Shown: positions 11,035 to 26,436 of the stretch, piece by piece
Layout: each line of letters begins with the position of its first letter
Position numbering within the stretch: the stretch's first letter is position 1
Source of the DNA: Bdellovibrionales bacterium
Lineage (GTDB): Bacteria > Bdellovibrionota > Bdellovibrionia > Bdellovibrionales > UBA1609
Assembly: GCA_050246815.1 (NCBI GenBank)
Contig: JBFWVI010000009.1
Coordinates: 3,238-67,237, forward strand
DNA: 64,000 nucleotides
Reading direction: 5' to 3'
Made by a program: the position numbers and the translations under genes
Notes under the pieces: model-generated
What the model was told of the DNA's origin: nothing
Database searches by the model: none
Seen by the model: only the letters and a program-made list of their open reading frames with translations

Positions 11035-11860
11035 TTTTAACCTGGTGATGATGGCAGGGGCGCTCGCTGTGAGTTGCACTAAAAAAATCGATTCCACTGT
11101 CAAAACCGGAAAAGTTGAAAAGACCGACGTTATTCAGCGTACCACATTGAATGGCAGCCTACGTGGCAATCGGCAGAGCCAGATCCAGCCGGGGTACTCT
11201 GGTTATGTGGGCAAAGTTTTTGTGAAGGTCGGTGAAGACGTGAAGGCTGGACAGGCTTTGGTGAGCATCACGCAGACGATCAACCAAAACTTGAACGAAG
11301 TATTTCCGATACGTGCGCCGTTTGCGGGAAAGGTGACTCAAATTCTGAAGCAAGAGGGCGAATACATTTCGACGTCGAGCAGCAACAACGCTTTGTTGGT
11401 GCTGGATGATCTGACCTCGATGTGGATTGATGCCAATATCCCCGAGGTCGACATTGCCAAGGTATCTTTAGGGCTTGAGGCGCAAATTCGTGCCAATGCT
11501 TTGCCCGGACGCACTTACAAGGGGGCGGTACAGACCCTGTCACTGTCTTCCAAGGCCGCCACGGATCGTTGGGACCGAGGCCGGGTGGAGTTTCCGGCTG
11601 AAATTCGAGTGCTGGATCCGGATCAAGATCTGAAGCCCGGCATGACGGTTGTGGTGGATGTGATTTCGGCCAAAGTAGAAGGGGTACTGGCGGTGCGACA
11701 TGAATTTGTGCATCGCGAGCGTGGGGATGTTTTTTTGATCGACAAAAATGATCGGCGTTATCCGGTTGAGCTGGGACTTTCAAATGAAGACATGGTGGAA
11801 ATTCGCAGCGGTGTAAGTGAAGGTTTTGAAGTCAAAATGAAGGACTTCACAAAACTTTGA
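11009..11860 (+). CDS. Efflux pump periplasmic adaptor (MacA/HlyD-family membrane fusion lipoprotein)
   Basis: Lipoprotein-type signal (...MMAGALAVSC). Lipoyl-like hairpin halves GYVGKVFVKVGEDVKAGQALVSI and IRAPFAGKVTQI are present. It overlaps both the upstream and downstream genes. Confidence 0.75.
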   Translation: MKLACSWTNFNLVMMAGALAVSCTKKIDSTVKTGKVEKTDVIQRTTLNGSLRGNRQSQIQPGYSGYVGKVFVKVGEDVKAGQALVSITQTINQNLNEVFPIRAPFAGKVTQILKQEGEYISTSSSNNALLVLDDLTSMWIDANIPEVDIAKVSLGLEAQIRANALPGRTYKGAVQTLSLSSKAATDRWDRGRVEFPAEIRVLDPDQDLKPGMTVVVDVISAKVEGVLAVRHEFVHRERGDVFLIDKNDRRYPVELGLSNEDMVEIRSGVSEGFEVKMKDFTKL

Positions 11861-13950
11861 TGGAGCTGCTGCTTGAAACCCGCAATTTGGGCTTTTCTTA
11901 TAAGACAGGGCCGCCTGTTTTAAAGGGTATTTCGTTTGGAATTCGGCATGGCGAATTTGTGGCAATCACAGGTCCATCGGGCTCGGGCAAGTCGACTTTG
12001 TTTTATTTGTTGGGTGCGCTGACTTCTAAATTCAAAGGCGATATTTTTTTTGAAGGCATTTCTTACCGCACCATGAGTGCCGAGAAAGCCGCCGTGTTTC
12101 GCAATCAAAATATCGGCTTTGTATTTCAGCAGTTTTACCTGCTGCCGCGGGCGAATGTTTTGGACAACATATTGTTACCAGCAAATTATCCCTTTGAAAC
12201 TTCGCGCCCCACACTGGTGGACCAAGAACGAGCTAAAAATTTAGCTCATGAGTTGGGAATAGAGCATTTACTAGAGCGCGGACCACAACAGCTTTCGGGC
12301 GGGCAGCAACAACGAGTGGCGATTGCGCGAGCCCTGCTGCGAGACCCAGATTTGATTTTGGCTGATGAACCCACGGGAAATTTGGACAGTCACTCGAGTG
12401 AGGCGGTTTTTGGCTTGCTGCGCGAGATGAATCGCAAAGGAAAAACCGTGGTTTTGATTACTCACAGCCAAGAACTAGCCAATCAGTGCGAGCGAATCAT
12501 TCGCTTTAAAGATGGTGAAATCGAAGAGGATGTGAAAAATGGATCTAAATCGGCAGAGGGTTCTGTTCAAGAGTCAAAGGGGGCGCTTGAAGGACTGAAT
12601 CTTTCGGACATCGCCAAATTTCGTATGCGGGAACCTTTGGCCCCCGGGTCGCGTTGGATGCAGTTTTTGGCCACATGGTCTTTGGTTTCTTATTGGCGAT
12701 CGCTTCGGCCTGCCATAGAAAATATCCGGCGCAGTAAGGCCAAATCTTTTTTGACGATGCTGGGTGTGGTGCTGGGGATCGCGGCGGTTTTGAGTACGAT
12801 GAGTCTGGGCGATTTTACCAAACGGCGGGTGCTGGCCGGCTATGAGTCAATGGGTGTTAATAACTTGAATTTGAATGGTTATCCAAATTGGCGCCGCAGC
12901 TCGCGTGAATATGCCCCAGCTATTTTTCAGGCCTTTGATTGGCGGCGGGACTTGTTACCATTACAAAAAATATTCACTGAAATTGAGGCCATGTCACCCG
13001 TGCTGCAAGTGTGGAGCCCTAAATTTAATTTCGGCGGTAACACTTTGTCAGACGACACGACCTTGCTGGGGGTGAATGAAGACTATTATATGATCACTAA
13101 TCAGCAGCTTAAGGAGGGGCGACGCTTGATGTGGTTGGACGTCGAGAACGCCCATCCGGTGTGCGTGATTGGCTCAGGCGTGCAGAAGAAACTGTTCCGC
13201 CATGATGCTGCCCTGGATCGCATCGTCACCATTTTGCCGCAAAATCAAGAAAGTGAAATTCCGTGTCGCGTGGTGGGCGTATACAAACCTCAGCCGTCGC
13301 AAAATGCCAACAACCAGCCCGATGATATGATTTACGCACCTTACACCTACTTGCAGCGCGGTTTGACCAATCCTTGGGAGCGGGACATGCGCGGAGTTTC
13401 GATCAAAATCAGTTCCGGTTTTGACCCGGATAAAATGGGCAAACAATTTGAAGGGTATTTTAAGTCCCGCTATGGCAACACGGGCCAATTCAATTCCAAT
13501 TCGAATGCGAAGGCCATCGCCGAGATGCGACTTTTTGTGGCCATTTTTTCATCGCTTTTGACTGCGGTGGCGCTGATCGCCTTGATTGTTGGCGGGGTTG
13601 GGATCAACAACATGATGTTGGTGAATTTATCAGAGCGATTAAAGGAGCTGGGCTTACGCAAGGCCTTGGGCGCGACACCACAGCAGATTCGCGCACTGCT
13701 GCTGACCGAGTCTTTGGTTTTGTGTCTGATCGGCGGTGTGGTGGGTTTGATTTTAGGATTTTGTGGATACCACGGCTTGATCTATGCCGCGACGAAGTTA
13801 ATTCCAAACCTTGAGTTTCAGTGGGTTGTGCTATGGGGGGCTGTGCTGCTGTCGGGAGGCGCGGTCATCATCACGGGACTTTTAAGTGGCATGACTCCGG
13901 CGCTCAAAGCGGAACGTCTTCAAGTTATCGATGCGCTAAGACAGGAATAG
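11860..13950 (+). CDS. macB: MacB-type ABC transporter (fused ATPase + FtsX-like permease)
   Basis: Walker [10 protein letters not shown], signature [15 protein letters not shown] and Walker [13 protein letters not shown]. These are followed by a large periplasmic loop and C-terminal TM helices. The ATG at 11860 overlaps the adaptor stop (TGATG). Confidence 0.85.
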
Positions 13951-14123: not shown

Positions 14124-14948
14124 GTGAAAAGAAGCAGTCTTCTTCAAAACCTGAGTGTCATCGTGTTTTTTGCCGGCATGATTTTTTTGTTTCAGAATTG
14201 CAATGTGTTAAGCCGGCCTCAGGCGGTCGACATGTCATCACTTTCGTTGCTTTTATTTCATGACAACTTTGATGTGGCGACTTTACAATGTATGGATTGT
14301 CATGAAAGTGATCGAAAAGACGTCGCTCACTTTGCAGGGCAAGACTGTGCCGGTTGCCATGTGCCTGGCCCAGGTTGGGCTGTAAGCGCGGATGCCGCAC
14401 ATAACCCAGTACCAGTTCAATGCAAATCCTGCCATGCTGATGGAGCCACTTACGATCGATATCCTGTTGGTCATATGGCAATTGCAAGTGGCAGTGATTG
14501 TATTGACTGCCATAAGGCGTCCATCAGTGCGGGCTTTATGGATTGGAAGGGTGGTTTATTTGCACACGATGCTACATTAATCGCAGGAAGAAACTGTTCA
14601 AGCTGCCATGCTGCAGATCGCCCCCCGATCGTTAATTCAACGAACATCAACCCCAGTATCAATGATGCCCGTGTCGTGGATAAAACTCACTTTGCGGCCA
14701 AAGATTGCTTTTACTGCCACAATGCACCACCGACAGGAAACTCGTGGCGAGGTGCCAGTGCCAATCAGTATGAACACACCGATGCATCAGGAATCAAACT
14801 CAATTTCTGCCTCTCTTGCCACATGAGAAGTGAGCATGTGGGCGTACACGGCTCGGTCAACTCGGACTTAGACACAGACGGAAAGTGCCAGCAATGTCAC
14901 CAGAAACGAAGAAGCTGGGACAAATCGCCGCGCAATCCAAACTTGTGA
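14124..14948 (+). CDS. Octaheme c-type cytochrome, probable lipoprotein
   Basis: 274 aa from a GTG start. Eight CXXCH motifs: CMDCH, CAGCH, CKSCH, CIDCH, CSSCH, CFYCH, CLSCH, CQQCH. The signal peptide ends ...IFLFQNC. Confidence 0.8.
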   Translation: MKRSSLLQNLSVIVFFAGMIFLFQNCNVLSRPQAVDMSSLSLLLFHDNFDVATLQCMDCHESDRKDVAHFAGQDCAGCHVPGPGWAVSADAAHNPVPVQCKSCHADGATYDRYPVGHMAIASGSDCIDCHKASISAGFMDWKGGLFAHDATLIAGRNCSSCHAADRPPIVNSTNINPSINDARVVDKTHFAAKDCFYCHNAPPTGNSWRGASANQYEHTDASGIKLNFCLSCHMRSEHVGVHGSVNSDLDTDGKCQQCHQKRRSWDKSPRNPNL

Positions 14949-14950
14949 TT

Positions 14951-15541
14951 TTACTCTTTCAAAAGACGCGACATTTCTTGAATCGACGCAGGGCTTTGCC
15001 AATCTCTAAAACCACTAATCTTGCGGTAAAACTTCAAGCCTTTTTTTAAAATATAGCTTTCAGGCAGCGCTGAAGTTCCATAACTATTAGCGGTCTGTCC
15101 GAATGGGTCCAGCAATGTAATGAAATTCGAACTTGGTTTGATTTTTAAGTTTTTAAAAAAATCGAGCACCACGGACGAATTCTTGTCTTGCGAGATCGCG
15201 AGGATAAGAATTTCTTTTTCAAAGCTTCTTGAAAATTGAAGAAGAGAGGGCAGTTCGTCCAAACAGGGTTTGCACCAGGTAGCCCAAAAGTTAACGATCA
15301 CAATCTTATCTGTATGGTCTTGAATGGCAAATGGGCTTCCGTTCAAGTCAAGAAGCGAGAAGTGCGGCGCTTGTTGAAAGGGCGTCTGTAGAGTCGCAAT
15401 ATCAAGGTCCGAGGGATTGATTTCTGGATTCACAACATAGCGATCGACAAGTTTGTAGGTGCCGAAGGCGATGGCCACTACCGCGAGCAAAATCAGCGTT
15501 GTGGTTAAAGTCCGAGATCGAATGTGAACTGGTTGTGACAT
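14951..15541 (-). CDS. Membrane-anchored TlpA/ResA-like thiol-disulfide oxidoreductase
   Basis: 196 aa with an N-terminal TM helix (TLILLAVVAIAFGTY) and a thioredoxin-fold active site, FWATWCKPCLDELP. Its start overlaps the 3' end of the 30-heme gene by 37 nt. Confidence 0.8.
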   Translation of the reverse strand: MSQPVHIRSRTLTTTLILLAVVAIAFGTYKLVDRYVVNPEINPSDLDIATLQTPFQQAPHFSLLDLNGSPFAIQDHTDKIVIVNFWATWCKPCLDELPSLLQFSRSFEKEILILAISQDKNSSVVLDFFKNLKIKPSSNFITLLDPFGQTANSYGTSALPESYILKKGLKFYRKISGFRDWQSPASIQEMSRLLKE

Positions 15542-17985
15542 TTATTACATTCCTGCACGCCTAAAATTGGTGCGTGATTGAAGGTGGAGTTATCGACGTT
15601 GTTGCGATGGCAGTCTGTGCAGCTTGAGTAAGTGCCCTGGTAGACTCCATTGTTGTGGCACGAGAAACAATCCAAAGCTCGATGACTCCCGCGAAGCGGG
15701 AAGGCTGTCATGGAGTGGCGAAATTTTGAATGCTCCCAAAATGTTTGTCGGTGGCATTCGCTGCAATTGGGTAAGGAGCCATTGTGGACGTCGTCTTTTT
15801 GGTGGCAGACAGAGCAGCTTTCGCTGAGGCCCGAAAGTTTACGATCTTCTCGGTGGCACTCCACGCAAGACAGCGTAAAGTGGCTCGCATGCAAAGTGAA
15901 ATTGCGGTGAAAGTCCTTTACGATGGACCAACCTTTGTCGATGTGGCAGCTTTGGCAGCGATTGCCGAATTGCCCCTTATGGGTATCATCTCTTTTGTGG
16001 CAGTCGACGCAATCGGTTGAGAGTGGCCGATAGAGAGTTAATCTGTAGGCCTTCTGGTCGGGGCCAAATTGCACGCGCTTAGTTTCGTGGGGTTTATGGC
16101 AATCGCTGCATTTTGTCTTGACGTGTTTACCCGATAGCGCAAACCGTGTGCCCTTGTTGTGATTGAAGTTGGTCGGCGACCACTTTTTTTCGTTATGACA
16201 ATTTTGGCAGCTGATTCCTAATTGGCCAGCATGAAAATCAGAGTGACAAGTGGTGCAGGATTTTTTTTCCAGATCTGGGAAAAGAAAGCGGTGCCAAACT
16301 ACTTCTTTTTGTCCGTAAGTCGAGCGGTTCAATGGCTTGTGACAATCGGCGCATTTAAGATCTTTGTGCCGCCCTTTAAGGGAAAATGCGGTTCGCTCAT
16401 GGTCAAAGGATTTGAGATCAGAAAAGCGAGTGGTGGTATGGCATTCGGTGCAATTTTTTGCCGAAAATGCGGTGTGGAATTGATCCAAGTGAGGGTTGCG
16501 ATGACAATCGAGACAAAATCCGGATTCAAAGCTTGGAAACTTAAAGACTTGCTTGCCGTTTTGATTGTGGCACGAGGAGCATTTAAGATTTTGATGCTGG
16601 CCGCTGAGCTGGAATCGGGTTTGATTGTGATCGAAAGTTCCTTTTTTGTCATTGGGTTGCAGATGCCAGCCCTCTGTAATATGGCAAGTGCTGCACTTTT
16701 TATTTGTAAAAGCCTTTGATGGAGAGCCCAAGTGAGGGTTTTGGTGGCAGGCGTTGCAGCTGGCGGAGGTTAGGTTGTGCCATAAATATCGGCCTGGCTT
16801 GTTGGCCCTATGCAGTGGCATCAAGAGTCCAGCTTTCTTTTTTTCCGGTAGATGGCAGTCCGCGCAAGACAGTGCGCTGTGTTTGCCATCGATTTCAAAG
16901 CGAGTGTTTGTTGAGTGGTTGAAGTCGTGAGTTTTCTTCCAATCGGATTCGGAATGACAGGATAAGCAGTTGTTTGGATTTTTTATGCGTGGAGATTTGT
17001 AGGCGCCAAACAAATGCTGATCTTTATGACAAGTGAGGCAGGCTTGTGAGAGGCCTTTGTAGTTGAGTTGGGCCGCTTTGGGCCGGCCGGCGTTTTGTTT
17101 ATGACAGTCTGTGCAGCGAAGCTGGGCGTGTTTGCCGCGAAGCGGATAGCCGGTGTTTTGGTGTGGGAAGCTTGTTGTCTTCCAGCTAGTTTGATTGTGG
17201 CATGTGGTGCAATTGCCGTTTTGATATTTAGCCGAAAGATTTTGTCGGTGAGGCGATTCATGACAGCTAAGGCACTTTGAGCTTGAAAGCTGTTTCCAAT
17301 GATAGCGCGCAGGTGACTTGGGGGTGGTCGGCTTCTGAGGGGAGTGACAGTCTTGGCACTTTAACTGAGCGTGCTTTTCTTCAAGCTGAAATCGCGTATC
17401 CCGATTGTGATCAAATTTGGTTACTGTTTTCCAGGCCTGACTGTTGTGGCATGCATCACAGTCCTTTCGGGCCCACTTATCCGTGAACTGATGAATGTCG
17501 TCTTTGCGGTGGCAAGAGATGCAGCTTGAGATCTGCCCAATGTAGCGGACCCCGTCGGGTCGAATAGGCTTTTGTGAGCGCTTTTGTTTGTGGCAGTCCG
17601 TGCACTTGAGTTGAGCGTGTTTGCCCGTCAGCGAAAGGCCTGTGATGTCATGGTTGAACTTGGCTTCGTTCAAAATTGTTGTATCATGTTGGCGACCTTG
17701 GTGGTCGGAATGGCAGTCCTGGCACTTTTTATCTGTGCGTCCGTGCAGTCCGCGTTTTTCATTTACGAACGGCAGGATCTCCTTATGGCATTCAAGGCAT
17801 TTTTGGCTGGGCAGTCCTTTGCCCGCATCGTGGCATTTCATGCAGTCCGTGGCCTCTAAGTCTTTGTGCCCTTCGATAAGGGGGCCTGGTGCAAAGAGTT
17901 TATTGAGCAGGGCTTCCCGACTGGCCTCTTGGGCTTGCAGGACAACAGGTATCAAAACCAGTAGGGTATAGAGCCAACGCTTCAT
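15505..17985 (-). CDS. 30-heme c-type cytochrome (secreted)
   Basis: 826 aa with a signal peptide (LIPVVLQA/QEA). I counted 30 CXXCH motifs. The segment F-x-H-x(2-4)-T-x-F-x-L-x-G-x-H-x2-L-x-C-x2-CH recurs nine times, at hemes 4, 7, 10, 13, 16, 19, 22, 25 and 28. Confidence 0.85.
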   Translation of the reverse strand: MKRWLYTLLVLIPVVLQAQEASREALLNKLFAPGPLIEGHKDLEATDCMKCHDAGKGLPSQKCLECHKEILPFVNEKRGLHGRTDKKCQDCHSDHQGRQHDTTILNEAKFNHDITGLSLTGKHAQLKCTDCHKQKRSQKPIRPDGVRYIGQISSCISCHRKDDIHQFTDKWARKDCDACHNSQAWKTVTKFDHNRDTRFQLEEKHAQLKCQDCHSPQKPTTPKSPARYHWKQLSSSKCLSCHESPHRQNLSAKYQNGNCTTCHNQTSWKTTSFPHQNTGYPLRGKHAQLRCTDCHKQNAGRPKAAQLNYKGLSQACLTCHKDQHLFGAYKSPRIKNPNNCLSCHSESDWKKTHDFNHSTNTRFEIDGKHSALSCADCHLPEKKKAGLLMPLHRANKPGRYLWHNLTSASCNACHQNPHLGSPSKAFTNKKCSTCHITEGWHLQPNDKKGTFDHNQTRFQLSGQHQNLKCSSCHNQNGKQVFKFPSFESGFCLDCHRNPHLDQFHTAFSAKNCTECHTTTRFSDLKSFDHERTAFSLKGRHKDLKCADCHKPLNRSTYGQKEVVWHRFLFPDLEKKSCTTCHSDFHAGQLGISCQNCHNEKKWSPTNFNHNKGTRFALSGKHVKTKCSDCHKPHETKRVQFGPDQKAYRLTLYRPLSTDCVDCHKRDDTHKGQFGNRCQSCHIDKGWSIVKDFHRNFTLHASHFTLSCVECHREDRKLSGLSESCSVCHQKDDVHNGSLPNCSECHRQTFWEHSKFRHSMTAFPLRGSHRALDCFSCHNNGVYQGTYSSCTDCHRNNVDNSTFNHAPILGVQECNKCHNQFTFDLGL

Positions 17986-19313
17986 AAGCGTCCCCGCGGT
18001 GGCGTGCCGTCTCGGAGCGGAGAAATTTTTTGATTGCCGAACAAAAGTGTGACTTGGAAGAGCGCAGAATAGATTTCAACTTTTTCGTCTCGTTGGTACT
18101 GTAGACTGGCGGCGCCAAAAAAACGCCGTGAGACTTGGAAGGCATAAGTGGCTTCACCGATGATCGGGTGCAGGTGTTGACCCGTGGTCTCAGTTTCAGC
18201 GCCAAGGTCAATTGAGAACTCATACTCATCTTTGTCGGTGAAATAGCCAAAGCTGTATCCGCCATAAGTGCCAGTTTTCGTAAATTCCTTTTTTTGTGCA
18301 AGTCGGTAAGACATATCGATGTTTTTGGAGTGTATTCTTGGCGTTTTACATTCGCCAGTGACATTTAAGCGCTCCAAGTCATCCGCGCTTCGTTTTCCGT
18401 AGCGGGTTTGGAGGGTCCAGCGAAGCGTTGGACTAGAGAGCAGGGTGCCACGAAGAGACGCTTCTTTGTATGGGCTGGGCTCTAATTGTTCGCGTAGGTC
18501 CTGGGCACGGCGATATTCGACAACGTCGTAGGCGCTCAGACCTAATTGAGTGAAAAAGCGGGATGTCCATTTTTGGTCATAGAGAGCCAACCCATTTTGA
18601 ACGTAAGTGCGAGGCACAAAATCCAAGTACACCATACTTGAGACTTGGCTCCCCACGGCCCATTGATAGGCGCTTCTTTGGTAGAGGTACTGGCGATCAG
18701 TTTGGCCATCGTATTGTTGTGTGACGTGGGCCACATGAAGTTCTTTGCGTGTAGTCCATGACGGTGTTTTGGGAGTCAGCGAAGCTATCGCGCCGAAGGT
18801 GGTGGCCTTTTCGCGAAACTGGAGATAGCTTTTGTCATATTGTTTTGGGTTAAGGCCGGCAAAGGCTTCGGCGCTAAAACTTTGCGACAGCCGCCATCCA
18901 ATGCTCGCGCCATCGTTGAATGTAGCGCCAGCATCTGGTATCGCATAGCGGCCGACCTCAAAAATAAGACCTTCTGAATTGGGATTTTTTCGTAAGGAGA
19001 GTTGGCGGACTTGGAATGAGTTGTGATCTGTCAGTTCCTGTCTTTCGCGGTCTAGCTTATTGAAAAAATCATGTTTGTCCCTGAGATCCGAGGTGAAGAC
19101 CCACTCGCGCGTGAGCAGGTCCCCCGCACGATAGTAAAACCGGGCCGACGAAGTGGCAAAATCATTGTTGTCGGTGCTGAAGGGCTCGGGCTCATGTTTT
19201 TCATGGGAGAAAAAGGCGCCAAAGCTAAGGCGCCCGTGTTCATCAAAGGCAAAAGTGGGGACCGCAAAGACGGCCCCAAACAACATCGGGATAAGTAAGC
19301 TTTTACTTTTCAT
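17982..19313 (-). CDS. Putative outer-membrane beta-barrel (porin-like) protein
   Basis: 443 aa with a signal peptide (MLFGAVFAVPTFA/FDEH). It shows alternating hydrophobic/polar stretches rich in Y/F/G (for example YEFSIDLGAETE...ATYAFQVSRRFFGAASLQYQ...IYSALFQVTLLF). Its stop overlaps the cytochrome start (ATGA). No family was recognised by eye. Confidence 0.5.
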   Translation of the reverse strand: MKSKSLLIPMLFGAVFAVPTFAFDEHGRLSFGAFFSHEKHEPEPFSTDNNDFATSSARFYYRAGDLLTREWVFTSDLRDKHDFFNKLDRERQELTDHNSFQVRQLSLRKNPNSEGLIFEVGRYAIPDAGATFNDGASIGWRLSQSFSAEAFAGLNPKQYDKSYLQFREKATTFGAIASLTPKTPSWTTRKELHVAHVTQQYDGQTDRQYLYQRSAYQWAVGSQVSSMVYLDFVPRTYVQNGLALYDQKWTSRFFTQLGLSAYDVVEYRRAQDLREQLEPSPYKEASLRGTLLSSPTLRWTLQTRYGKRSADDLERLNVTGECKTPRIHSKNIDMSYRLAQKKEFTKTGTYGGYSFGYFTDKDEYEFSIDLGAETETTGQHLHPIIGEATYAFQVSRRFFGAASLQYQRDEKVEIYSALFQVTLLFGNQKISPLRDGTPPRGRL

Positions 19314-19342: not shown

Positions 19343-21085
19343 GTGGGATGGCTTAAACGTCAGCTTTTGTTCAAAATCTTTTCCTCGGTCAAATTCGCCG
19401 TCCCGTTGCTGTTGGTCATCGCGGCGGTGATCGCGGCCGGGACCTTGGTTGAGAGTCGATACAACGCCAGCTATGCACAAATGCGAGTCTATGAAACCTG
19501 GTGGTTTCGCGCTCTGATGGGCTGTTTGGGGCTTTCTGTTTTCACGGCGGCATTGTCACGCTGGCCATGGCAAAAGCGCCACGTGGGTTTTTTAGTCACG
19601 CATCTAGGTATTTTGATGATGCTGGCGGGAGGCGTGGTCACAAAACTTTGGGGCATTGATGGTCAGTTGCAGATACCCGAAGGAAAGTCGGGGCAGCAGG
19701 TGTTTATTTCGGAGCGTGTCTTTGAGTACTCAGGACCAAGAGATTTTAAGAAAATTCTCATCCCCACAAGCGCGAGTGCGTGGCGTGAAGGGTGGTTGAG
19801 CCCGGTCAGGCAGGAGCCGGATTCACCTGCGCAAGTCGTGGGATTTGAGCCTTTTGTACGACCTCGTGCTCAAAGCGGCCCCCGGGGAGCAGGGGGGAAG
19901 TTCATTGCGTTTCGCCTGCAAAGCCAGTTTTTTGATCAGGAGGAATGGCTGGACTCCGTTGAGCGACCACAAATTCAAATGGGGCCGGCGCTGATTCGCT
20001 TTGGTATGCAAGAAAAGATGCTCGTGCCAAAGCAGGAGCCGCTGCATAAAAAAGACTTTGTGGGACTGTTTATTCGAGACGCCGATGGCGAAGCCGTTGC
20101 CAAACGTCTAGACATTGGTCTTGGGCAGCGCGAAGCCCGCATCGGGGCTGTGAAAATTCAGGTGAAGCAAGTTCTGAAGCGTGCCACTGTGGCGGACAAC
20201 AAGATCGCGGAGGGCGATAGCGGCCCGCTTAACCCAGCACTGGAGATTGAGATCTTAGCGAATGGAAAAACATATCGCGATGTGATTTTCTCGCGCTTCC
20301 CAAGCTTTTCCCTTCTGAAAGAAAATCCAACTCGCTTTCGCTTCGAATACGTGGCTGGAGGTTCGGGAGAATCGCTACAAAATGAGGATGCCGCGCGCAA
20401 TTTAATTGAATTTATTCCTTCGCCTGAGCAATCGGACAAAGCCATTTTGAGGTTGTCCAAGCAAGGCAAAGTCATTTTAGAGAAAGAAGTAAAAGTCGGA
20501 GAGCCAACCGATACTCCATGGATGGGTATGAAAGTGACTTTAGTTTCCTTAACTGCGCCTGAAACCAATACAGCGCAGGCGGAGAAAATTGAGACTATTC
20601 GCCCCACGCCTAAACAGCCCAATTTGCCGCCGAGTGCAATTTTAGTTCGTGTGGCAGGCGAGCAACCTCCTTTTTGGCTGGTGGAGGGCGATATCAAGGA
20701 TGTTCAGGTTCGAGGAGAGCGTTACCAGTTCTATTATGGGCTTAATTCCATTCGCTTGCCGTTTGCGCTTGAGCTCTTAAAATTTACAAAAGTTGACTAT
20801 CCGGGAACTGAGACTGCGATGTCGTTTGCGAGTGACGTTCGCGTCGTAACAGACCAAAGTCGACATACAATTTCGATGAATGAACCATTGAAACGAGATG
20901 GTTACACTCTTTATCAGAGCAGTTATGATCTACAACCGGGACGCCCTGCGCTTTCGATCTTTTCTGTGAATCGGGACCCTGGGCGTTGGATCAAATACAT
21001 GGGCGGATTGGTTTTAGCATTTGGGATTGTCACGCTGACCATAACGAGAAGCCGGATGGCGCGGCGGAGCGGGAAACAAGTATGA
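19343..21085 (+). CDS. ccsB: Cytochrome c biogenesis protein CcsB/ResB (System II)
   Basis: 580 aa from a GTG start. The ResB-like N-terminus is KFAVPLLLVIAAVIAAGTLVESRYN..., followed by a large periplasmic domain and a C-terminal TM. It overlaps ccsA by 4 nt. Confidence 0.8.
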   Translation: MGWLKRQLLFKIFSSVKFAVPLLLVIAAVIAAGTLVESRYNASYAQMRVYETWWFRALMGCLGLSVFTAALSRWPWQKRHVGFLVTHLGILMMLAGGVVTKLWGIDGQLQIPEGKSGQQVFISERVFEYSGPRDFKKILIPTSASAWREGWLSPVRQEPDSPAQVVGFEPFVRPRAQSGPRGAGGKFIAFRLQSQFFDQEEWLDSVERPQIQMGPALIRFGMQEKMLVPKQEPLHKKDFVGLFIRDADGEAVAKRLDIGLGQREARIGAVKIQVKQVLKRATVADNKIAEGDSGPLNPALEIEILANGKTYRDVIFSRFPSFSLLKENPTRFRFEYVAGGSGESLQNEDAARNLIEFIPSPEQSDKAILRLSKQGKVILEKEVKVGEPTDTPWMGMKVTLVSLTAPETNTAQAEKIETIRPTPKQPNLPPSAILVRVAGEQPPFWLVEGDIKDVQVRGERYQFYYGLNSIRLPFALELLKFTKVDYPGTETAMSFASDVRVVTDQSRHTISMNEPLKRDGYTLYQSSYDLQPGRPALSIFSVNRDPGRWIKYMGGLVLAFGIVTLTITRSRMARRSGKQV

Positions 21086-22725
21086 AAAGAAACTGGCTCG
21101 TCTTGATATGTATGCTGTGCATTCCCTCATCGGTCATGGCCCTGACAGATCCGCATGAGGCATTTTTAAGTCATGGCCGACAGATTCGAAGCCAGCTTTT
21201 TGAAACTTTGCCTGTACATGATCGTGGACGTATTAAGCCGGCACATACTTTTATGCGCGAGGCGATTTTATTTGTAACGGGAGGTTATAACTTCAGCGGG
21301 CTGGATGCCGTACAAACTTATCTGAGTCTTATCGGCTTTTCTGAAATTGAGCGGCTCAAAGTATTGAACGTCAGGCATGTGCCTGTGCGCAAAGCCTTGG
21401 GTTTGAACGCGTCAGCGAGATTTTTTTCAACGGCGGATATCGAAAGCAGTAAGTTATTGGAATTTGCTCAGCCGTTGTTGGAAAAGGAAGAGAAAAATTC
21501 GCGAGCGCTTGAGCCCCACGAAAAAAACCTGCTTGAAATCTACAACCAGTATTGGCTGTTAAAAAATATTCATTCAGGCCAACACTTGCTGCGGGCCGTG
21601 GATGCAAATGAGGTGGGACATGCGGCTGAATTCCACCAAGAGCCGACCGGCGAAGCGGTGCAAAAAGTTAGAGATTGGTTACAGGCGACTATCGATGGGA
21701 ATTGGAACTTAGTTTCGGAGTTGCGTTCACTTACATTCGAAGCTGTACGCCAACAACATTGGCCCGAGCTTTTTGCCAAGCAATTTGAGCACCTAGAAAG
21801 AGAAGTTCAGTACAACAAAATTCGCCCATTTTTAATCGCAGGCCTGCTTTTTTTAATTCTTGGCGCGAGCTTGGCGTTTAAGGACCATGTGCCGTTTCTA
21901 TCGAAGGTTAACTTTGGTTATTTACTTGTGCTGCCTTTTTTTCCGCTGGCCTATGGCCTTTATCTAAGAGTGATCATCACCGGGTTTGCGCCTGTGACCA
22001 ATATGTACGGAACCATGATCTGGGTTTCGTTTGGTATAGGGCTGTTCAGTCTAGTTTTATGGTATCTGTATCAAAAGCACCGTTTTGTCGGCGGCCTTTG
22101 GATCGCCGCCGCGGCAACACTTTTTTTAACTGAGAGTATTCCGCTGGTTCTAAGCCCGGATCTTGACCCAATTGTCGCTGTTTTACGGTCGAATCTGTGG
22201 CTGACCATCCATGTGCTCACGATTGTCATTTCTTATGCGGCCTTTGCTATTGCGATGATCCTTGGCAATATCGTTTTGATTCGTACTTTGCGTCGGCCTG
22301 TCTATGATGATCCTGCCATTCGCGATGCCGCCAAATCTTGCTACAGAATGATCCAGCTTGGCGTTTTTTTACTTTCCGGAGGCATTATTTTAGGAGGTGT
22401 CTGGGCGGATTACTCTTGGGGGCGTTTTTGGGGGTGGGATCCGAAAGAAACATGGGCCTTAATCGCAGATCTTGGCTTTTTGGCCATTCTACATGCGAAA
22501 TACGTCGGATGGCTGGGGGCCTATGGTCTGTTGGCGGCCTCGACTGTTGCATTTTTGCTTGTGATCATGGCCTGGTACGGCGTCAATTTTATACTTGCGG
22601 CGGGCCTGCACTCTTATGGCTTTTCGAGCGGCGGAGCGACAATGGTATTGGTTTTCGTGATCATGCAATTGGGGTTGTTGGCCGCCTCTCTTATGCGTTA
22701 TTCGCGGAGTAAAGTGGTAAGGTGA
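21082..22725 (+). CDS. ccsA: Cytochrome c biogenesis protein CcsA/ResC (System II heme handling) with a long N-terminal periplasmic extension
   Basis: Trp-rich WWD-type heme motif WGRFWGWDPKETWALI and multiple TM helices. The ATG at 21082 (MKRNWLVLICML...) overlaps the ccsB stop (ATGA). The ORF-track start at 20986 lies inside ccsB. Confidence 0.85.
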   Translation: MKRNWLVLICMLCIPSSVMALTDPHEAFLSHGRQIRSQLFETLPVHDRGRIKPAHTFMREAILFVTGGYNFSGLDAVQTYLSLIGFSEIERLKVLNVRHVPVRKALGLNASARFFSTADIESSKLLEFAQPLLEKEEKNSRALEPHEKNLLEIYNQYWLLKNIHSGQHLLRAVDANEVGHAAEFHQEPTGEAVQKVRDWLQATIDGNWNLVSELRSLTFEAVRQQHWPELFAKQFEHLEREVQYNKIRPFLIAGLLFLILGASLAFKDHVPFLSKVNFGYLLVLPFFPLAYGLYLRVIITGFAPVTNMYGTMIWVSFGIGLFSLVLWYLYQKHRFVGGLWIAAAATLFLTESIPLVLSPDLDPIVAVLRSNLWLTIHVLTIVISYAAFAIAMILGNIVLIRTLRRPVYDDPAIRDAAKSCYRMIQLGVFLLSGGIILGGVWADYSWGRFWGWDPKETWALIADLGFLAILHAKYVGWLGAYGLLAASTVAFLLVIMAWYGVNFILAAGLHSYGFSSGGATMVLVFVIMQLGLLAASLMRYSRSKVVR

Positions 22726-22729
22726 ACAT

Positions 22730-24073
22730 ATGAAATGGCTGGTGATGTTGTTAGACCATCTTTGGATCTGGGGTTTACTTATTTTTGGTGGACTGGCCTA
22801 TTACGGTGTCGCAAAAAAAAATCGGCAAGAAAATCAGGCAAAAAAAATTTTGCAAAAAGCTGTGGCGACCGGGCTTGATGAGCCGTTGAGTCTGCACCCA
22901 GAGGTCGACCCGGCGAAATGCGCGGGTTGTGGCGCCTGCACGAAGGTTTGCCCCGAAGGTGACATTCTTAAAATGATCAACAGCAAGGCTGTTTTGGTTT
23001 CACCAACGAAGTGTGTGGGCCACGGCGAATGCGAGCGCGCCTGCCCCTTTGGCGCCATTGACTTGGTATTTGGCACTAAAAAACGTGGTGTCGATATTCC
23101 ACGCCTTTCTAAGAACTATGAAACAAATGTACCTGGACTGTATATTGCGGGTGAGTTGGGCGGCATGGGGCTGATCCGCAATGCGATCAAACAAGGCCAT
23201 CAGGCTGCAGATCATGCCTTGAGCAATTTAAATCCCAGCGTGAAATCCGACACGGATGTGCTTGTCGTTGGGGCTGGTCCCGCCGGATTGGCGGTATGCC
23301 TGACGGCGATCGTGCATAAAAAGCGTTATCTATGTATTGAGCAGAATACGGCCGGTGGTACGGTTTATAATTTTCCTCGGCAAAAAGTTGTGATGACCCA
23401 TCCAGCGGATCTGCCGGGTGTAGGGAAAATGAAGTTTCCGCGTAATGTGGTTTCAAAAGAGGAGCTGTTGCACTATTGGAATCAAGTGCGGCAAAAGGTC
23501 GGAATTAAGATTAGAGAAAATGAAAAATTTGAGGGACTTGAAAAGGTCGGAGATCATTTCAAAGTCAAGACCTCAAAGGCGGAGTACATGGCCCAAAAGG
23601 TTGTCTTGGCTATGGGTGTGCGAGGCTCGCCTAGGCGCTTGGGCTTGCCAAATGAAGACACGACAGGTGTGGCTTATAACTTGATTGATCCGGCACAATA
23701 TACGAACAAAAAAATCGCGGTGGTGGGCGGCGGTAATGCCGGTGTGGAAGCTGCGCAGATGCTGGCTAACCCTAAATATAAAAATCAGGTGACTTTGTTG
23801 GTGCGTGGTCCTGCATTTGATCGTTGCAATGAGGACAATAAGCGAATTATTGAGGATATGGCCCAAAAAAAAATGGTCCAAATTTGGTATGAAGCCCAAG
23901 TGAAGGAAATTAAAAAAGACCAGCTGAATATTGAGCGTGCGGGGCAATTGCTGGACATCGAGAATGATCAGCTTTTTGTATTCGCAGGCGCCGAGATGCC
24001 GTTTAAGTTTTTGATGAGCTTAGGAGTCGAAATTAATAAAGCTTTTGGTCAGAAATTGAAGTCGGGTGGATAA
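22730..24073 (+). CDS. Membrane-anchored 2x[Fe-S] ferredoxin-domain / FAD-NAD(P)H oxidoreductase
   Basis: 447 aa. The N-terminal TM helix is followed by a K/R-rich stretch. The first cluster motif is CAGCGACTKVCP; the second is CVGHGECERACP, with His where the second Cys is expected. Two Rossmann motifs are present: VLVVGAGPAGLA and IAVVGGGNAGVEAA. No CXXC dithiol occurs outside the Fe-S domain. Confidence 0.8.
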   Translation: MKWLVMLLDHLWIWGLLIFGGLAYYGVAKKNRQENQAKKILQKAVATGLDEPLSLHPEVDPAKCAGCGACTKVCPEGDILKMINSKAVLVSPTKCVGHGECERACPFGAIDLVFGTKKRGVDIPRLSKNYETNVPGLYIAGELGGMGLIRNAIKQGHQAADHALSNLNPSVKSDTDVLVVGAGPAGLAVCLTAIVHKKRYLCIEQNTAGGTVYNFPRQKVVMTHPADLPGVGKMKFPRNVVSKEELLHYWNQVRQKVGIKIRENEKFEGLEKVGDHFKVKTSKAEYMAQKVVLAMGVRGSPRRLGLPNEDTTGVAYNLIDPAQYTNKKIAVVGGGNAGVEAAQMLANPKYKNQVTLLVRGPAFDRCNEDNKRIIEDMAQKKMVQIWYEAQVKEIKKDQLNIERAGQLLDIENDQLFVFAGAEMPFKFLMSLGVEINKAFGQKLKSGG

Positions 24074-24943
24074 ATGATCGCGTGGTTCGGCCGACAATTG
24101 ATTTTGCTTTGGTTTTTTATCGCGCTGATCCTGTGTTGGGAGTACTTAGCCTTGAACTACAGTCCTGGCTTAAGTCTATTGTTGTTTGCAAAAATAAAGT
24201 GGCCCTATTGGGCAGAAGTCGATTTTTCGACAAAACCTGGAAAGCCGATCAGCTATGCATTGGGTTGGATCGGTTTTGGGTTTATGGTCTCTACAAACTT
24301 TTATATTTTGCGTAAGCGTTTGGGCATTATGCAAAAGTGGGGCAACCCATCGGTCTGGCTGGATTATCATATTTTTTGTGGTTTGATCGGCCCCACTCTT
24401 ATTATTTTTCATACTGACTTTAAAGTTCGTGGCTTGGTCGCAATTAGTTTTTGGTCCATGATGATCGTTGCGGGCAGCGGTATTTTAGGACGATATCTGT
24501 ATATGAAGGTCTTGATTGGCGCAGCCGAATTGAGGGGGCAGATTCAAGAGTGGGATAAAAAAATTTCGACCTTAATCACATCCAGCAAAAAAAATGTGAC
24601 CGAAGCTGAGATCGCGGGCTTAAAAGGGATGGCACTGCAATACGCGGGGGCCACGCCGCTGACGGAAGAGGTCGTGGGGTTGAGTGGATTATTTAAAATC
24701 GTTTGGTTTTCTGTTGTTGGCGATATCAAAATATTTTTTTCGCATGCGGGGATTGGACGCCATCTTCATCCGTTGGCACCTATTGTACTTTTAAATTACG
24801 CCACCACGGTCCGGCGCGAACTCACGCTTGAACCCTTTCGCCGTCTTTTGGGCTACTGGCATGCGTTTCATGTGCCCTTTACGTTCGCGATGTACATCAC
24901 GGCTATCATCCACATCGTGGTCGTCTCGCTGCTGCGGGTCTAA
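24074..24943 (+). CDS. Integral membrane protein with two H-x13-H helices (candidate di-heme b-type cytochrome)
   Basis: 289 aa with about 5 hydrophobic helices. YHIFCGLIGPTLIIFH and FHVPFTFAMYITAIIH each carry two His separated by exactly 13 residues. The start codon abuts the upstream stop with zero gap. Confidence 0.6.
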   Translation: MIAWFGRQLILLWFFIALILCWEYLALNYSPGLSLLLFAKIKWPYWAEVDFSTKPGKPISYALGWIGFGFMVSTNFYILRKRLGIMQKWGNPSVWLDYHIFCGLIGPTLIIFHTDFKVRGLVAISFWSMMIVAGSGILGRYLYMKVLIGAAELRGQIQEWDKKISTLITSSKKNVTEAEIAGLKGMALQYAGATPLTEEVVGLSGLFKIVWFSVVGDIKIFFSHAGIGRHLHPLAPIVLLNYATTVRRELTLEPFRRLLGYWHAFHVPFTFAMYITAIIHIVVVSLLRV

Positions 24944-24951
24944 TGTCGCTT

Positions 24952-26253
24952 TTACTGCGGAACGACCCGCCAAATGGATCCTGAGTCGGTGGCCACGTAC
25001 AAATTGCCGTCGGGACCCTGGACCAAAGAGCGAATGCGCTGCGCGGGTAAACCCACTTGAGTAACGCTGGCCACGCTATTGTTGGCATTGAGGCGCAGGC
25101 GATCTAGTCGTGTGGCAGCCATGACCCCTACCAAAAGACTGCCTTCCCACGCTTTCCACTGTGTGCCGTATAAAAACACGCTGGGGCCCATACCTTGGGA
25201 TTGGCCGTTGTTGGTGTACACCGGCATCATGGCGTTCACGAACTTGCCAGTGTCGGTCATTGGAGTCAGGGCGCCGTTGGTTTTGTTGGAAACATAACCA
25301 CAGTAGTTGTCGTTGCAGGTGACTCCGGCTTCGGGTCTTGGGTCCCAGCCTGAGTTGCCGCCAGCCGCGAGGGGTGTGACTTCATCGGTGTGGCCGGGGC
25401 CGTGCTCAGAGGAAAATGGTTGATTGGAACCAGGGCGAAAGGCGATCCCTTGAACATTTCGATGACCAAAAGTAAAAATGCGCGGATCGGCCCCGGCGGG
25501 AGCGTTGTTGCCAGGAGCGGCGGTGCCGTTACCGGTCACGCGTAAAACTTTGCCCCCCAAGCGGGTCAGATCTTGTGGCAGCGGACCGTTGTGATTGTCG
25601 CCCGTGGTGACATACAAATAGCCGTCAGGTCCGAAGCGCAAACGTCCGCCGCTGTGAGCGCCCGCCCCACCCCAGCTGTTGCCTGCGTTTTTATAAGCAA
25701 TGTCGGTGATGATGTCCGTGCGGTTGGCGACCATTGTGTAGCCGGCATCTACCGTCAGGCGAATCACGCGATTGGTGCGGGGGTTGGTGGACAGATTTGA
25801 GGCCATATAAACATAGATCGTACGGTTTGTGGCGAAGTTGGGGTCCACCGCCACGCCGAGCATGCCGCTTTGGCCCTCACAGAACATATCAGCAGCCACA
25901 AGGGCCGAGCCCGCAGAGCCAAACAAGCGCGTCACTGAACCATCCGCACGGCGAACTGAAAGGCCGTTGCAACGTTCGGTGAACAGCATGGCATTGTCGG
26001 GAGTGAAGGCCAAATCCCAAGGATTGCTCAAGCCTGTCATGAAATCCGTGCGCTGCAAAGTGGGCTCGACATTGCTTGAGGGCTCAAGAGGTGTGCCGCT
26101 GCCAGGGGGGGGAGGGGTGCCACCACCGGGACCGCCACTGCTGCCTTGATTGTTAGCTTGTTGCGAGTCAAAGCCACCGGTGCAGTTTTGAGCAATGACA
26201 ATGGAGCTAGCCAAAATGGCCAGTAACCCCAGCATTTTCACCCGACGACGCAT
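24952..26253 (-). CDS. PQQ-dependent (soluble aldose/sorbosone-type) sugar dehydrogenase, lipoprotein
   Basis: Family-typical motifs FGHRNVQGIAFRP and EHGPGHTDEV. The ATG at 26253 follows an AGGGGGA RBS. The signal is ...LASSIVIAQNC, followed by a Gly/Pro-rich tether. Confidence 0.8.
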   Translation of the reverse strand: MRRRVKMLGLLAILASSIVIAQNCTGGFDSQQANNQGSSGGPGGGTPPPPGSGTPLEPSSNVEPTLQRTDFMTGLSNPWDLAFTPDNAMLFTERCNGLSVRRADGSVTRLFGSAGSALVAADMFCEGQSGMLGVAVDPNFATNRTIYVYMASNLSTNPRTNRVIRLTVDAGYTMVANRTDIITDIAYKNAGNSWGGAGAHSGGRLRFGPDGYLYVTTGDNHNGPLPQDLTRLGGKVLRVTGNGTAAPGNNAPAGADPRIFTFGHRNVQGIAFRPGSNQPFSSEHGPGHTDEVTPLAAGGNSGWDPRPEAGVTCNDNYCGYVSNKTNGALTPMTDTGKFVNAMMPVYTNNGQSQGMGPSVFLYGTQWKAWEGSLLVGVMAATRLDRLRLNANNSVASVTQVGLPAQRIRSLVQGPDGNLYVATDSGSIWRVVPQ

Positions 26254-26436
26254 AATATTCCCCCTGATTGCGGTTTGATCTAAACCTGGTCTCATTGGGA
26301 TCTATTGTGAGATTGTTGGGGCGGGTTTGTCCAGAGCAAGATGGGCATAGGCAGAATACGGTTTAGTTTAACGCGATTGTGTGTAGGTTTGCCGACAATT
26401 TGAAAAGGGAGCGCAAGCAGCTCCCCTTTCGATCAT

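Follow-up and report, generated by a model that had tools for sequence, protein, structure and literature searches.

A candidate NAD(P)H-fed electron-input module in a porin-cytochrome gene cluster of a Bdellovibrionales bacterium

The window analyzed here is a 64,000-nucleotide stretch of a Bdellovibrionales bacterium (assembly GCA_050246815.1, contig JBFWVI010000009.1, positions 3,238 to 67,237 of the forward strand). It contains two adjoining genes encoding an Fe-S flavoprotein (22730..24073, 447 aa) and an inner-membrane protein with four conserved histidines, referred to below as the four-His protein (24074..24943, 289 aa). Coordinates are those of the window and refer to the plus strand unless the minus strand is stated. 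The TAA stop codon of the flavoprotein gene directly abuts the ATG of the four-His gene, so that the intergenic distance is zero, as noted in the initial annotation of this stretch. We consider it reasonably probable that the pair is the inner-membrane electron-input module of a trans-envelope cytochrome conduit similar to the porin-cytochrome cluster PCC3 (He et al., 2017), in which electrons from NAD(P)H would be passed outward to an outer-membrane barrel. The initial annotation had read the pair as a split chain running from NAD(P)H through FAD, Fe-S clusters and two b hemes, and residue conservation, predicted topology and comparative genomics now support every sequence-level element of such a chain. 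The more specific proposal that the module may be a quinone-independent, NAD(P)H-fed outlet, in which an anchored flavoprotein, a His-ligated exit cluster and a di-heme b protein deliver electrons directly to a cytochrome of about 30 hemes, is put forward tentatively.

Domain architecture and conservation of the flavoprotein

The flavoprotein is composed of an N-terminal membrane anchor, a ferredoxin domain of the 2x[4Fe-4S] type, and an FAD and NAD(P)H module similar to those of YpdA and thioredoxin reductase (TrxR). In the Pfam searches, the ferredoxin domain covers aa 56–110, with Fer4_6, Fer4_10, and Fer4_7 above threshold, and a two-dinucleotide module of the Pyr_redox_3/Pyr_redox_2 type covers aa 176–438 (Pyr_redox_3, 2.3e-39). 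The single transmembrane (TM) anchor, detected by hydropathy at aa 4–25 (22739..22804), is followed by a basic cluster (KK.R...KK). A TM helix followed by a K/R cluster was present in all of the flavoprotein homologues inspected, and no twin-arginine motif is visible in the flavoprotein sequence. Because the helix and the basic cluster are conserved and a twin-arginine signal is lacking, the cofactor domains are predicted to be cytoplasmic, with the ferredoxin domain nearest the membrane, in agreement with the cytoplasmic placement originally assigned to the bulk of the protein.

The two ferredoxin-type motifs recognized in the initial annotation were both borne out by an alignment of 60 homologues. 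The first motif, C64-x2-C67-x2-C70-x3-C74-P75 (22919..22954), reads C64-A-G-C-G-A-C-T-K-V-C74-P and is canonical, and its four Cys and the Pro are invariant in all 60 sequences. The second motif, C95-V-G-H98-G-E-C101-E-R-A-C105-P106 (23012..23047), has the form C-x2-H-x2-C-x3-CP, with His replacing the second Cys. The replacement is a family trait, as C95, V96, G97, H98, G99, C101, C105, and P106 are invariant in 60/60 homologues. All seven cluster Cys and His98 are therefore invariant, and the dinucleotide motifs are invariant or nearly so. In ferredoxin chemistry, a His in place of the second Cys leads to a His-ligated [4Fe-4S] cluster or to a [3Fe-4S] cluster, and the second motif is predicted to hold one of these two.

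A 'GD-type' FAD-binding motif, VPGLYIAGELGGMGL (aa 134–148, 23129..23173), is located upstream of the first Rossmann motif. This segment aligns to residues ~245–345 of GR, LipDH, TrxR, and FNR chains, where the C-terminal FAD motif of these enzymes lies, and its residues Y138, G141, E142, L143, and G145 are invariant in the flavoprotein alignment. The alignment to YpdA ends at residue 275 of 326, about 50 residues before the YpdA C-terminus. Since a FAD motif of the C-terminal type precedes the first GxGxxG and the C-terminal piece of YpdA is missing at the end, the FAD domain is predicted to be circularly permuted throughout this flavoprotein family. The FAD and NAD(P)H Rossmann motifs, both of which had been spotted at the outset, are G181-A-G-P-A-G186 (23270..23287) and G333-G-G-N-A-G-V-E340 (23726..23749). 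Downstream of the latter, after the second Rossmann strand, R359 and R365 are conserved in 53/60 and 57/60 homologues, respectively, and align with the 'VTVLYRG' segment of YpdA. YpdA/Bdr uses NADPH, and the alignment of the two Arg with this segment suggests by analogy that the flavoprotein may also prefer NADPH.

Among both curated families and solved structures, the FAD/NAD(P)H module comes nearest to YpdA/Bdr (TIGR04018; PDB 7a76 and 7a7b, E 8e-26, aa 176–441). Both proteins lack the CxxC of TrxR, and no CxxC occurs in the flavoprotein outside the first Fe-S motif. The flavoprotein differs from YpdA/Bdr in carrying an additional TM anchor and 2x Fe-S domain, in having the C-terminal FAD motif shifted to the front, and in the replacement of the conserved Cys of the YpdA GGGPCG motif by Ala185, which is Ala in 57/60 homologues. 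An identity as YpdA/Bdr (TIGR04018) was rejected on a score of 154.6 bits against a cut-off of 339.9 and on the Ala at the position of the conserved Cys, and an identity as thioredoxin reductase (TIGR01292) on a score of 92.6 bits against 343 and on the absence of a CxxC in the NADPH domain. A disulfide reductase role of either kind was rejected on the same grounds of sub-cut-off scores, a catalytic Cys replaced by Ala, and a missing CxxC; the early statement that the enzyme is not of the thioredoxin reductase type thus stands.

Topology and predicted heme ligands of the four-His protein

No Pfam or NCBIfam model matched the four-His protein. An AF2 model built on 38 homologues (pLDDT 89.6, pTM 0.75), taken together with hydropathy, places TM1 at ~8–28, TM2 at 58–79, TM3 at 93–113, TM4 at 120–142, and TM5 at 258–287. 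The four His are found in the motifs W95-LDY-H99-x13-H113 on TM3 (24350..24412; model helix 92–113) and W262-HAF-H266-x13-H280 on TM5 (24845..24934), in line with the two H-x13-H helices that had been predicted. They are invariant in 38/38 close homologues and in 110/110 sequences after the addition of 109 distant cluster representatives, which share 22–44% identity (median 30%), the 110 relatives together spanning 22–60%; W262 is likewise invariant in 110/110. An SGxxG motif on TM4, S135-G-I-L-G139 (24476..24490), is almost as strongly conserved (S135 107/110, G136 110/110, G139 110/110). The protein contains eight His, and in 200,000 shuffles of its sequence the mean number of H-x13-H pairs was 0.18, with a probability of 0.012 for two or more. 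Two such pairs are only moderately unlikely by composition, and it is conservation that settles their reality.

The predicted topology comprises a cytoplasmic N-terminus, five TM helices, and an external C-terminus, with loop 80–92 and a helical insertion at aa 143–257 (24500..24844) in the cytoplasm. The 115-residue insertion, located between TM4 and TM5, is built in the model from these two helices extending as 50-residue helices (model helices 120–170 and 235–287). The positive-inside counts across the family are 4.3 K+R in the 13 residues of loop 80–92, and 17.4 K+R vs 11.0 D+E in the insertion. Independently of the charge counts, the N-terminus is placed inside because a fused relative, P0250, carries its Fe-S domains before TM1. 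A sixth TM segment at helix 203–222, which would flip TM5, was considered and rejected. This helix has a mean hydropathy of 0.94 and about three charged residues, and TM4 and TM5, as helices of 50 residues, both lead into a domain rich in K/R. In the N-in, five-TM arrangement, TM3 and TM5 would run parallel from inside to outside, with H99 and H266 toward the cytoplasmic side of the membrane and H113 and H280 toward the periplasmic side. The His would thus be located at two membrane depths, a point that the initial annotation had asked to be checked.

Cytochrome b and ferric-reductase domains classically bind two hemes in this way, through an H-x13-H motif on each of two parallel TM helices. 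Fourteen helix residues correspond to ~21 A, and the two His of a helix end up on nearly the same helical face. The four-His protein is a putative di-heme cytochrome b of the same type as the 'IMP' of the PCC3 and PCC4 porin-cytochrome clusters, which were defined in iron oxidizers and other Proteobacteria by He, Barco, Emerson and Roden (2017; Front Microbiol 8:1584; PMC5566968). In that description, the IMP has ~300 aa and five TM helices, of which TM3 and TM5 each bear W-x3-H-x13-H and TM4 bears SGxxG; it was likened to ferric-reductase domains and cytochrome b, with two b hemes predicted, and was modeled as quinone-active (He et al., 2017). The four-His protein, with 289 aa, five TM helices, both W-x3-H-x13-H motifs, SGxxG, and a cluster with a barrel and multiheme cytochromes, shows all of these traits, which are the published motif and gene-cluster criteria of the class.

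Permissive profile scans of the 38 members returned DUF4405 in 32, Ferric_reduct in 12, and prokaryotic cytochrome b561 in four, all sub-threshold and always on the TM2–TM3 hairpin or TM5, which are the His-bearing parts. DUF4405 (PF14358) has a gathering threshold of 26.7 bits; the window protein gave no match to it at E<=10, and the best score in individual scans of relatives, that of P0109, was 25.8 bits and thus under the threshold. The ferric reductase domain (PF01794) reached at best an E-value of 0.027 in the family (15 bits, below the cut-off of 28). The spacing typical of ferric reductases, with bis-His on TM3 and TM5 and 13/12–13 intervening residues, is present as H-x13-H on both helices. 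The cytochrome b families, including Cytochrom_B_N, gave no match at E<=10; cytochrome b of bc1/b6f has its H-x13-H on helices B and D of an 8-TM protein, the motif spacing alone being common to both. The proposed likeness to NOX and cytochrome b therefore holds for the motif spacing and for sub-threshold DUF4405, ferric-reductase, and b561 profiles in relatives, and does not extend to any match above threshold or to a solved structure.

Pairing and synteny across genomes

A scan with one genome per species found relatives in 334 genomes, mostly of Bdellovibrionota, and the context counts given here cover the best 80 loci, nearly all of which belong to Bdellovibrionota/Oligoflexia, including Oligoflexus tunisiensis Shr3. 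A flavoprotein gene is nearby at 62 of the 80 loci, a homologue of the 443-aa barrel of the window at 61, and the 826-aa cytochrome at 58–67, while the System II cytochrome c synthase proteins CcsB and ResB are encoded nearby at 31 and 29 loci, respectively. Most of the loci without a flavoprotein are cut by contig ends or frameshifted. The flavoprotein and four-His genes are immediately adjacent in 43 of the 62 loci and occur in both orders, with the flavoprotein first in 17 and the membrane protein first in 21. In Oligoflexia, for example in O. tunisiensis, they form a tight co-directional operon in the order membrane protein, flavoprotein, 4-heme lipoprotein cytochrome, barrel, and large cytochrome.

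The conserved module, clustered in about 80 loci and found in several phyla, consists of the flavoprotein, the four-His protein, a 30-heme cytochrome, a barrel of ~22 strands, and a small heme lipoprotein, often with a System II set. The initial annotation had suggested a survey of co-occurrence with ccsBA or multiheme genes, and the counts above bear on it: the pair, rather than being common in genomes without periplasmic cytochromes, which would have spoken against the proposed chain, is almost always clustered with cytochrome and barrel genes. A link to the cytochrome is supported by the frequency of the large cytochrome and the barrel among these loci and by a gene similar to that of the 826-aa cytochrome downstream of the membrane protein in distant relatives. 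At 17 loci, a lipoprotein-like tetraheme cytochrome c of ~140 aa with a lipobox-like L-x-x-C-G is encoded between the flavoprotein and barrel genes, as at 12289–12729 of locus L058 and 12092–12514 of locus L038, both of the Oligoflexia type. In the window, a separate 8-heme cytochrome appears to replace it.

Distant relatives and replacement of the cytoplasmic partner

An exhaustive profile search of the four-His family yielded 3,039 cluster representatives at E<=1e-3, which were sampled for gene context. In P0250 (loci L081/L082, 8001–10037), ferredoxin-type Fe-S domains are fused N-terminally to the membrane domain, and the gene is followed by those of a 30-heme cytochrome and a 530-aa signal-peptide protein. 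At two further loci (L083 and L088), the membrane protein is paired with proteins similar to the flavoprotein (42% and 37% identity) and with multiheme cytochromes, and at loci L084–L087 a cytochrome similar to the 826-aa protein is encoded directly downstream of it. A different partner is found at L089, where a TM-anchored reductase with FAD_binding_6, NAD_binding_1, and a [2Fe-2S] Fer2 domain is encoded 3 bp upstream of the membrane protein, and a cytochrome with at least 34 hemes after it. A Methylophaga pinxianii plasmid (L092, NZ_CP095734.1) encodes a 612-aa FNR-type [2Fe-2S] reductase, a 252-aa four-His protein, and a 7-heme cytochrome.

In the Bacteroidota, the module is carried by the 100-kb plasmid pEMTOL02 of Emticicia oligotrophica DSM 17448 (L091, NC_018749.1, 78197–89995), in the order fused ResB-CcsA, membrane protein, flavoprotein homologue, 23-heme cytochrome, 40-heme cytochrome, and 538-aa hypothetical protein. 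This flavoprotein homologue shares 42% identity and keeps the CVGHG, FIAGELGGMGL, and GAGPAG motifs. The plasmid location points to horizontal mobility of the module.

The cytoplasmic Fe-S partner thus occurs in three non-homologous forms, namely the TrxR-type flavoprotein, the FNR-type [2Fe-2S] reductase, and the fused polyferredoxin, and the periplasmic partner in the sampled distant relatives is always a multiheme cytochrome. Three non-homologous Fe-S partners combined with a constant multiheme partner are the strongest argument that the four-His protein conducts electrons across the membrane, between an NAD(P)H/flavin/Fe-S donor in the cytoplasm and c hemes in the periplasm.

Two side observations concern these relatives. 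P0250 also has an N-terminal domain resembling cyclic-nucleotide-binding domains (weak Pfam match, below threshold), which hints that electron flow through some members of the four-His family may be ligand-regulated. On the M. pinxianii plasmid, the short variant is flanked on one side by a heavy-metal P-type ATPase cluster and on the other by a complete System I operon, ccmA-F.

Neighboring genes in the window

The main cytochrome of the cluster (15505..17985, minus strand) is an 826-aa protein with a signal peptide and 30 CXXCH motifs, corresponding to 27.5 aa per heme, and shows Pfam matches to Cytochrome_C7, c3, and MtrC-F domains. With the eight CXXCH of a second cytochrome c (14124..14948), it makes up the 38 hemes counted originally. 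The 8-heme protein, present in 22 loci, matches Cytochrome_C7 and is possibly a lipoprotein, its hydrophobic N-terminal segment closing with ...FQNC. If the hemes of the larger protein are spaced as in MtrA, 30 of them could reach about as far as the periplasm is wide, a resemblance to the 'periplasm-spanning' multiheme cytochrome discussed for PCC3. The porin-like outer-membrane beta-barrel (17982..19313, minus strand, 443 aa, ~22 strands) has a signal peptide and an all-beta AF2 model (pLDDT 87.4), for which 247 Foldseek matches in the PDB at E<=1e-3 were outer-membrane barrels without exception. The stop of the barrel gene and the 30-heme cytochrome gene overlap by 4 bp.

Genes for cytochrome c maturation adjoin the pair, in the same gene string and upstream of it, in keeping with the ccsBA operon seen initially. 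The ResB-like subunit (19343..21085) matches Pfam ResB (PF05140, 3e-24) and the CcsB/ResC-like subunit (20986..22725) matches Cytochrom_C_asm (PF01578, 2.3e-26), so both carry System II cytochrome c synthase domains; the CcsB reading frame ends 4 bp before the flavoprotein start. The CcsB-like protein is predicted to be a divergent System II member because its TIGR03144 score (4.9e-38, 131 bits) is under the cut-off of 187.6. ResB and CcsB are each ~580 aa long, and both fall under their NCBIfam equivalog cut-offs, as divergent proteins would. As mechanically called, the CcsB frame has a TTG start and a 100-bp overlap with the end of ResB (20986–21085), and the true start is probably further downstream. 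A periplasmic thioredoxin-like protein of the ResA/TlpA type (14951..15541, minus strand), with AhpC-TSA, Thioredoxin_8, and Redoxin matches, has counterparts in 19 loci, with WCxPC in the homologues; no CcdA/DsbD-type thiol-reductant transporter was noticed in the cluster with the ResA/TlpA-like, ResB, and CcsB genes. ResA, ResB, and CcsB may together provide a dedicated maturation set for the heme-rich proteins of the cluster.

Immediately upstream of the cytochrome cluster, a tripartite efflux system with OEP/TolC-like, HlyD-like, and MacB-type ABC components (9706–13950) is not conserved with the module at other loci. On the other side, a gene for a PQQ-dependent glucose/sorbosone dehydrogenase-like protein (24952–26295, minus strand) converges on the four-His gene, with the stop codons 8 bp apart; it was found in none of the 80 related loci and is probably unrelated. 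A promoter and terminator scan gave the same counts as the shuffled background.

Proposed electron path and alternative explanations

In the proposed path, the flavoprotein, tethered to the cytoplasmic face by its one TM helix, would oxidize NAD(P)H, probably NADPH, at the FAD. The electrons would then pass through the two ferredoxin-type clusters, with the His98 cluster taken as the exit cluster, and enter the four-His protein, with which the flavoprotein would form a complex. H99 and H266 would ligate a cytoplasmic-side heme b and H113 and H280 a periplasmic-side heme b ~21 A away, allowing electrons to cross the membrane. The next carriers would be the 30-heme cytochrome c and the small heme lipoprotein, from which electrons would exit through the ~22-strand barrel to an external acceptor. 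Outward flow is favored because the inside-negative membrane potential and the redox gradient, which starts at -320 mV, would both drive it, whereas reverse flow would have to reduce NAD(P)+ against the two. If the quinone-independent outlet exists, its ~30-heme cytochrome would be long enough to bridge the periplasm and thread the outer-membrane barrel. Bdellovibrionota and Emticicia, as mostly aerobic bacteria of predatory or oligotrophic habit, would then possess a self-contained, horizontally mobile pathway linking the pyridine nucleotides of the cytoplasm with the outside of the cell. It might serve to vent reductant inside hypoxic prey or in biofilms, to obtain iron by reducing extracellular Fe(III), or to produce a NOX-like oxidant against prey.

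Several observations weigh against this path. No family model in Pfam or NCBIfam reaches its cut-off for the four-His protein, a family profile HMM searched against PDB sequences gave only coiled-coil noise in the insertion, and a Foldseek search of the membrane-protein model against the PDB found no similar solved structure (best E 0.73). Of the 201 Foldseek matches at E<=10, the 50 listed were spurious long-helix matches, such as ABC exporters and BAR domains, with no NOX, STEAP, or MsrQ-like chain among them; the long cytoplasmic helices of the model probably dominate this search. Five of the distant loci (L084–L087 and L090) have no recognizable NAD(P)H reductase adjacent to the membrane protein. 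In the published model the IMP is coupled to quinones (He et al., 2017; PMC5566968), and the four-His protein may have a quinone site. PCC3 has been proposed to carry electrons inward in iron oxidizers, and in later papers it is still described as 'functionally unverified', with no mention of an NAD(P)H flavoprotein. Moreover, exporting NAD(P)H electrons without conserving energy has no obvious benefit for aerobic predators.

We consider it unlikely that the four-His protein is instead a quinone-linked cytochrome b, analogous to CymA, CbcL, and the b subunits of hydrogenase and bc1, that exchanges electrons between the quinone pool and the multiheme cytochrome. In that case, the flavoprotein would be an accessory, acting as an NAD(P)H:quinone reductase that uses the same b hemes or as a regulatory or repair reductase, and not as the obligatory donor. 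To our knowledge, every pathway of extracellular electron transfer characterized so far in Gram-negative bacteria starts at the inner membrane with a quinol dehydrogenase (e.g., CymA, ImcH, CbcL, CbcBA), which favors a quinone link, as do the model proposed in 2017 and the relatives without an adjacent reductase. However, a recurrent cytoplasmic Fe-S partner in three non-homologous forms is hard to explain unless electrons use the cytoplasmic face. The nearest recognizable families, namely DUF4405 proteins, the FRD/MsrQ/NOX group, and PepSY-TM proteins, are trans-membrane conduits and not quinone enzymes, and no quinone-site motif was identified in the four-His protein, though no rigorous search for one was made. 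It is improbable that the same chain runs inward, from an external donor such as Fe(II), a reduced mineral, humics, or a prey-derived reductant through the b hemes to a flavoprotein that reduces NAD(P)+. In its favor, such a chain of cofactors could in principle operate in either direction, and for Gallionellaceae PCC3 has been discussed as a system for iron oxidation or electron uptake, one PCC3 copy showing up-regulation of its inner-membrane component in iron-oxidizing cells. Inward flow, however, opposes the inside-negative potential, electron transfer from Fe(II)-class donors to NAD(P)+ (-320 mV) is strongly uphill, and the cluster shows no visible coupling device; the Bdellovibrionota and Emticicia hosts are, moreover, heterotrophs (for Emticicia also according to the database record).

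A role in cytochrome c maturation, in which the pair would supply reducing power to the periplasmic face for CcsBA and ResA, so that during the attachment of 38 or more hemes the exported heme would stay in the ferrous state or the thiols of the apocytochromes in the reduced state, is highly improbable. The pair lies directly downstream of resB-ccsB across the 4-bp gap in the window and directly downstream of the fused ccsA in Emticicia, ccm genes are found near the Methylophaga variant, and the cluster includes a ResA-like thioredoxin with no CcdA noticed there. Against these associations, resB and ccsB are found near 29–31 of the 80 loci, compared with 58–67 for the cytochrome and 61 for the barrel, and the Oligoflexia operons and distant lineages link the pair to cytochromes and barrel without ccs genes. 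The same membrane-protein class also occurs in System I organisms, and the four-His protein has no conserved Cys pair, C102 being Cys in 27/38 and Phe in 11/38 homologues. Maturation was rejected as the main function since cytochrome and barrel genes accompany the pair about twice as often as ccs genes do, and also where the latter are absent; the resB/ccsB linkage reflects a maturation system inherited together with the pair, not the function of the pair itself. Finally, it is scarcely credible that the four His bind a non-heme metal or are purely structural, with an adjacency reflecting some non-redox function. The lack of a curated-threshold profile match and of a structural match would fit that explanation, but H-x13-H on parallel TM3 and TM5 fits the bis-heme geometry, the four His are absolutely invariant along with the W-x3 and SGxxG positions, the partners are always redox proteins, and a related DUF4405 protein binds heme b (PMC11334425).

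Novelty and significance

The four-His membrane-protein class itself is already known in silico, having been described in 2017 (PMC5566968). New are the identification of its NAD(P)H Fe-S flavoprotein input and the anatomy of that enzyme, the evidence that other lineages replace this input by non-orthologous proteins, the presence of dedicated System II genes, and the wide distribution in Bdellovibrionota together with the occurrence on a Bacteroidota plasmid. No description of the module in Bdellovibrionota/Oligoflexia or Bacteroidota was found in the open-access literature.

If the pair couples NAD(P)H to the cytochrome wire, it would constitute a quinone-independent entry or exit point, and the first inner-membrane entry of Gram-negative extracellular electron transfer to bypass the quinone pool. 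A biochemical role could then be assigned to the 'IMP' and the 'other redox protein' of PCC3/PCC4-type clusters, which serve as marker genes in iron-cycling surveys, and the PCC3-type systems of iron oxidizers would need re-examination. A large share of Bdellovibrionota, a phylum not usually deemed electroactive, encodes a complete predicted trans-envelope conduit. The invariant C-x2-H-x2-C-x3-CP cluster motif and the circularly permuted YpdA-like module are enzymologically unusual in themselves. The cultured carriers E. oligotrophica DSM 17448 (pEMTOL02) and O. tunisiensis Shr3 make the hypothesis testable.

Comparison with known systems

In the Hmc and Tmc complexes of sulfate reducers, a membrane cytochrome b connects a cytoplasmic Fe-S protein with a multiheme cytochrome c of the periplasm, which gives a quinone-independent trans-membrane link. 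Their b subunits are of the NarI type and their Fe-S proteins are HdrD-like CCG proteins; a flavin/NAD(P)H module and an outer-membrane barrel are both lacking. The module proteins showed no homology to these complexes. The predicted chain is also similar to those of NOX, FRE/FRO, and the split MsrQ-Fre system, in which electrons pass from NAD(P)H through a flavin and two stacked b hemes (TM3, TM5) to a far-side acceptor, and the reductases of L089 and Methylophaga have an FNR-type FAD/NAD module of the same superfamily as the NOX dehydrogenase domain. Unlike in NOX, the dehydrogenase of the window is of the TrxR/YpdA type and a separate polypeptide, two Fe-S clusters would intervene between flavin and heme, and electrons would be handed to a cytochrome c wire instead of directly to O2 or Fe(III). 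Neither by sequence nor by fold did the four-His protein match solved NOX or STEAP structures significantly.

DUF4405, MsrQ, PepSY-TM (FoxB), and FezC proteins likewise have four central conserved His on TM helices and a presumed function in trans-membrane electron transfer, and a purified DUF4405 protein binds heme b through its four central His (PMC11334425). DUF4405 is described with six TM helices, whereas the four-His protein has five and a 115-aa cytoplasmic insertion. The genetic context is different as well, with ApbE-flavinylated extracytosolic proteins around DUF4405/FezC and a multiheme cytochrome, a barrel, and a cytoplasmic Fe-S flavoprotein here.

The closest counterparts are the PCC3 and PCC4 clusters, which share with the window an IMP gene with a porin-like barrel, a wire cytochrome of ~27 aa per heme, and a second cytochrome. 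No significant homology was reported between the PCC3 and PCC4 IMPs themselves (He et al., 2017). Clusters of 'MHC + IMP + other redox protein' were also listed in that study, with the redox proteins unspecified and an Fe-S gene adjacent or fused to the IMP, and the Methylophaga variant fits this class (Table S6; PMC5566968). PCC3 and PCC4 were described in Proteobacteria, with the IMP exchanging electrons with quinone during Fe(II) oxidation, whereas the present cluster belongs to Bdellovibrionota and occurs also in Bacteroidota. Two further differences are the cluster's own System II genes and the nature of the membrane protein's partner, recognized here as a TM-anchored flavoprotein of the NAD(P)H/FAD/2xFe-S kind.

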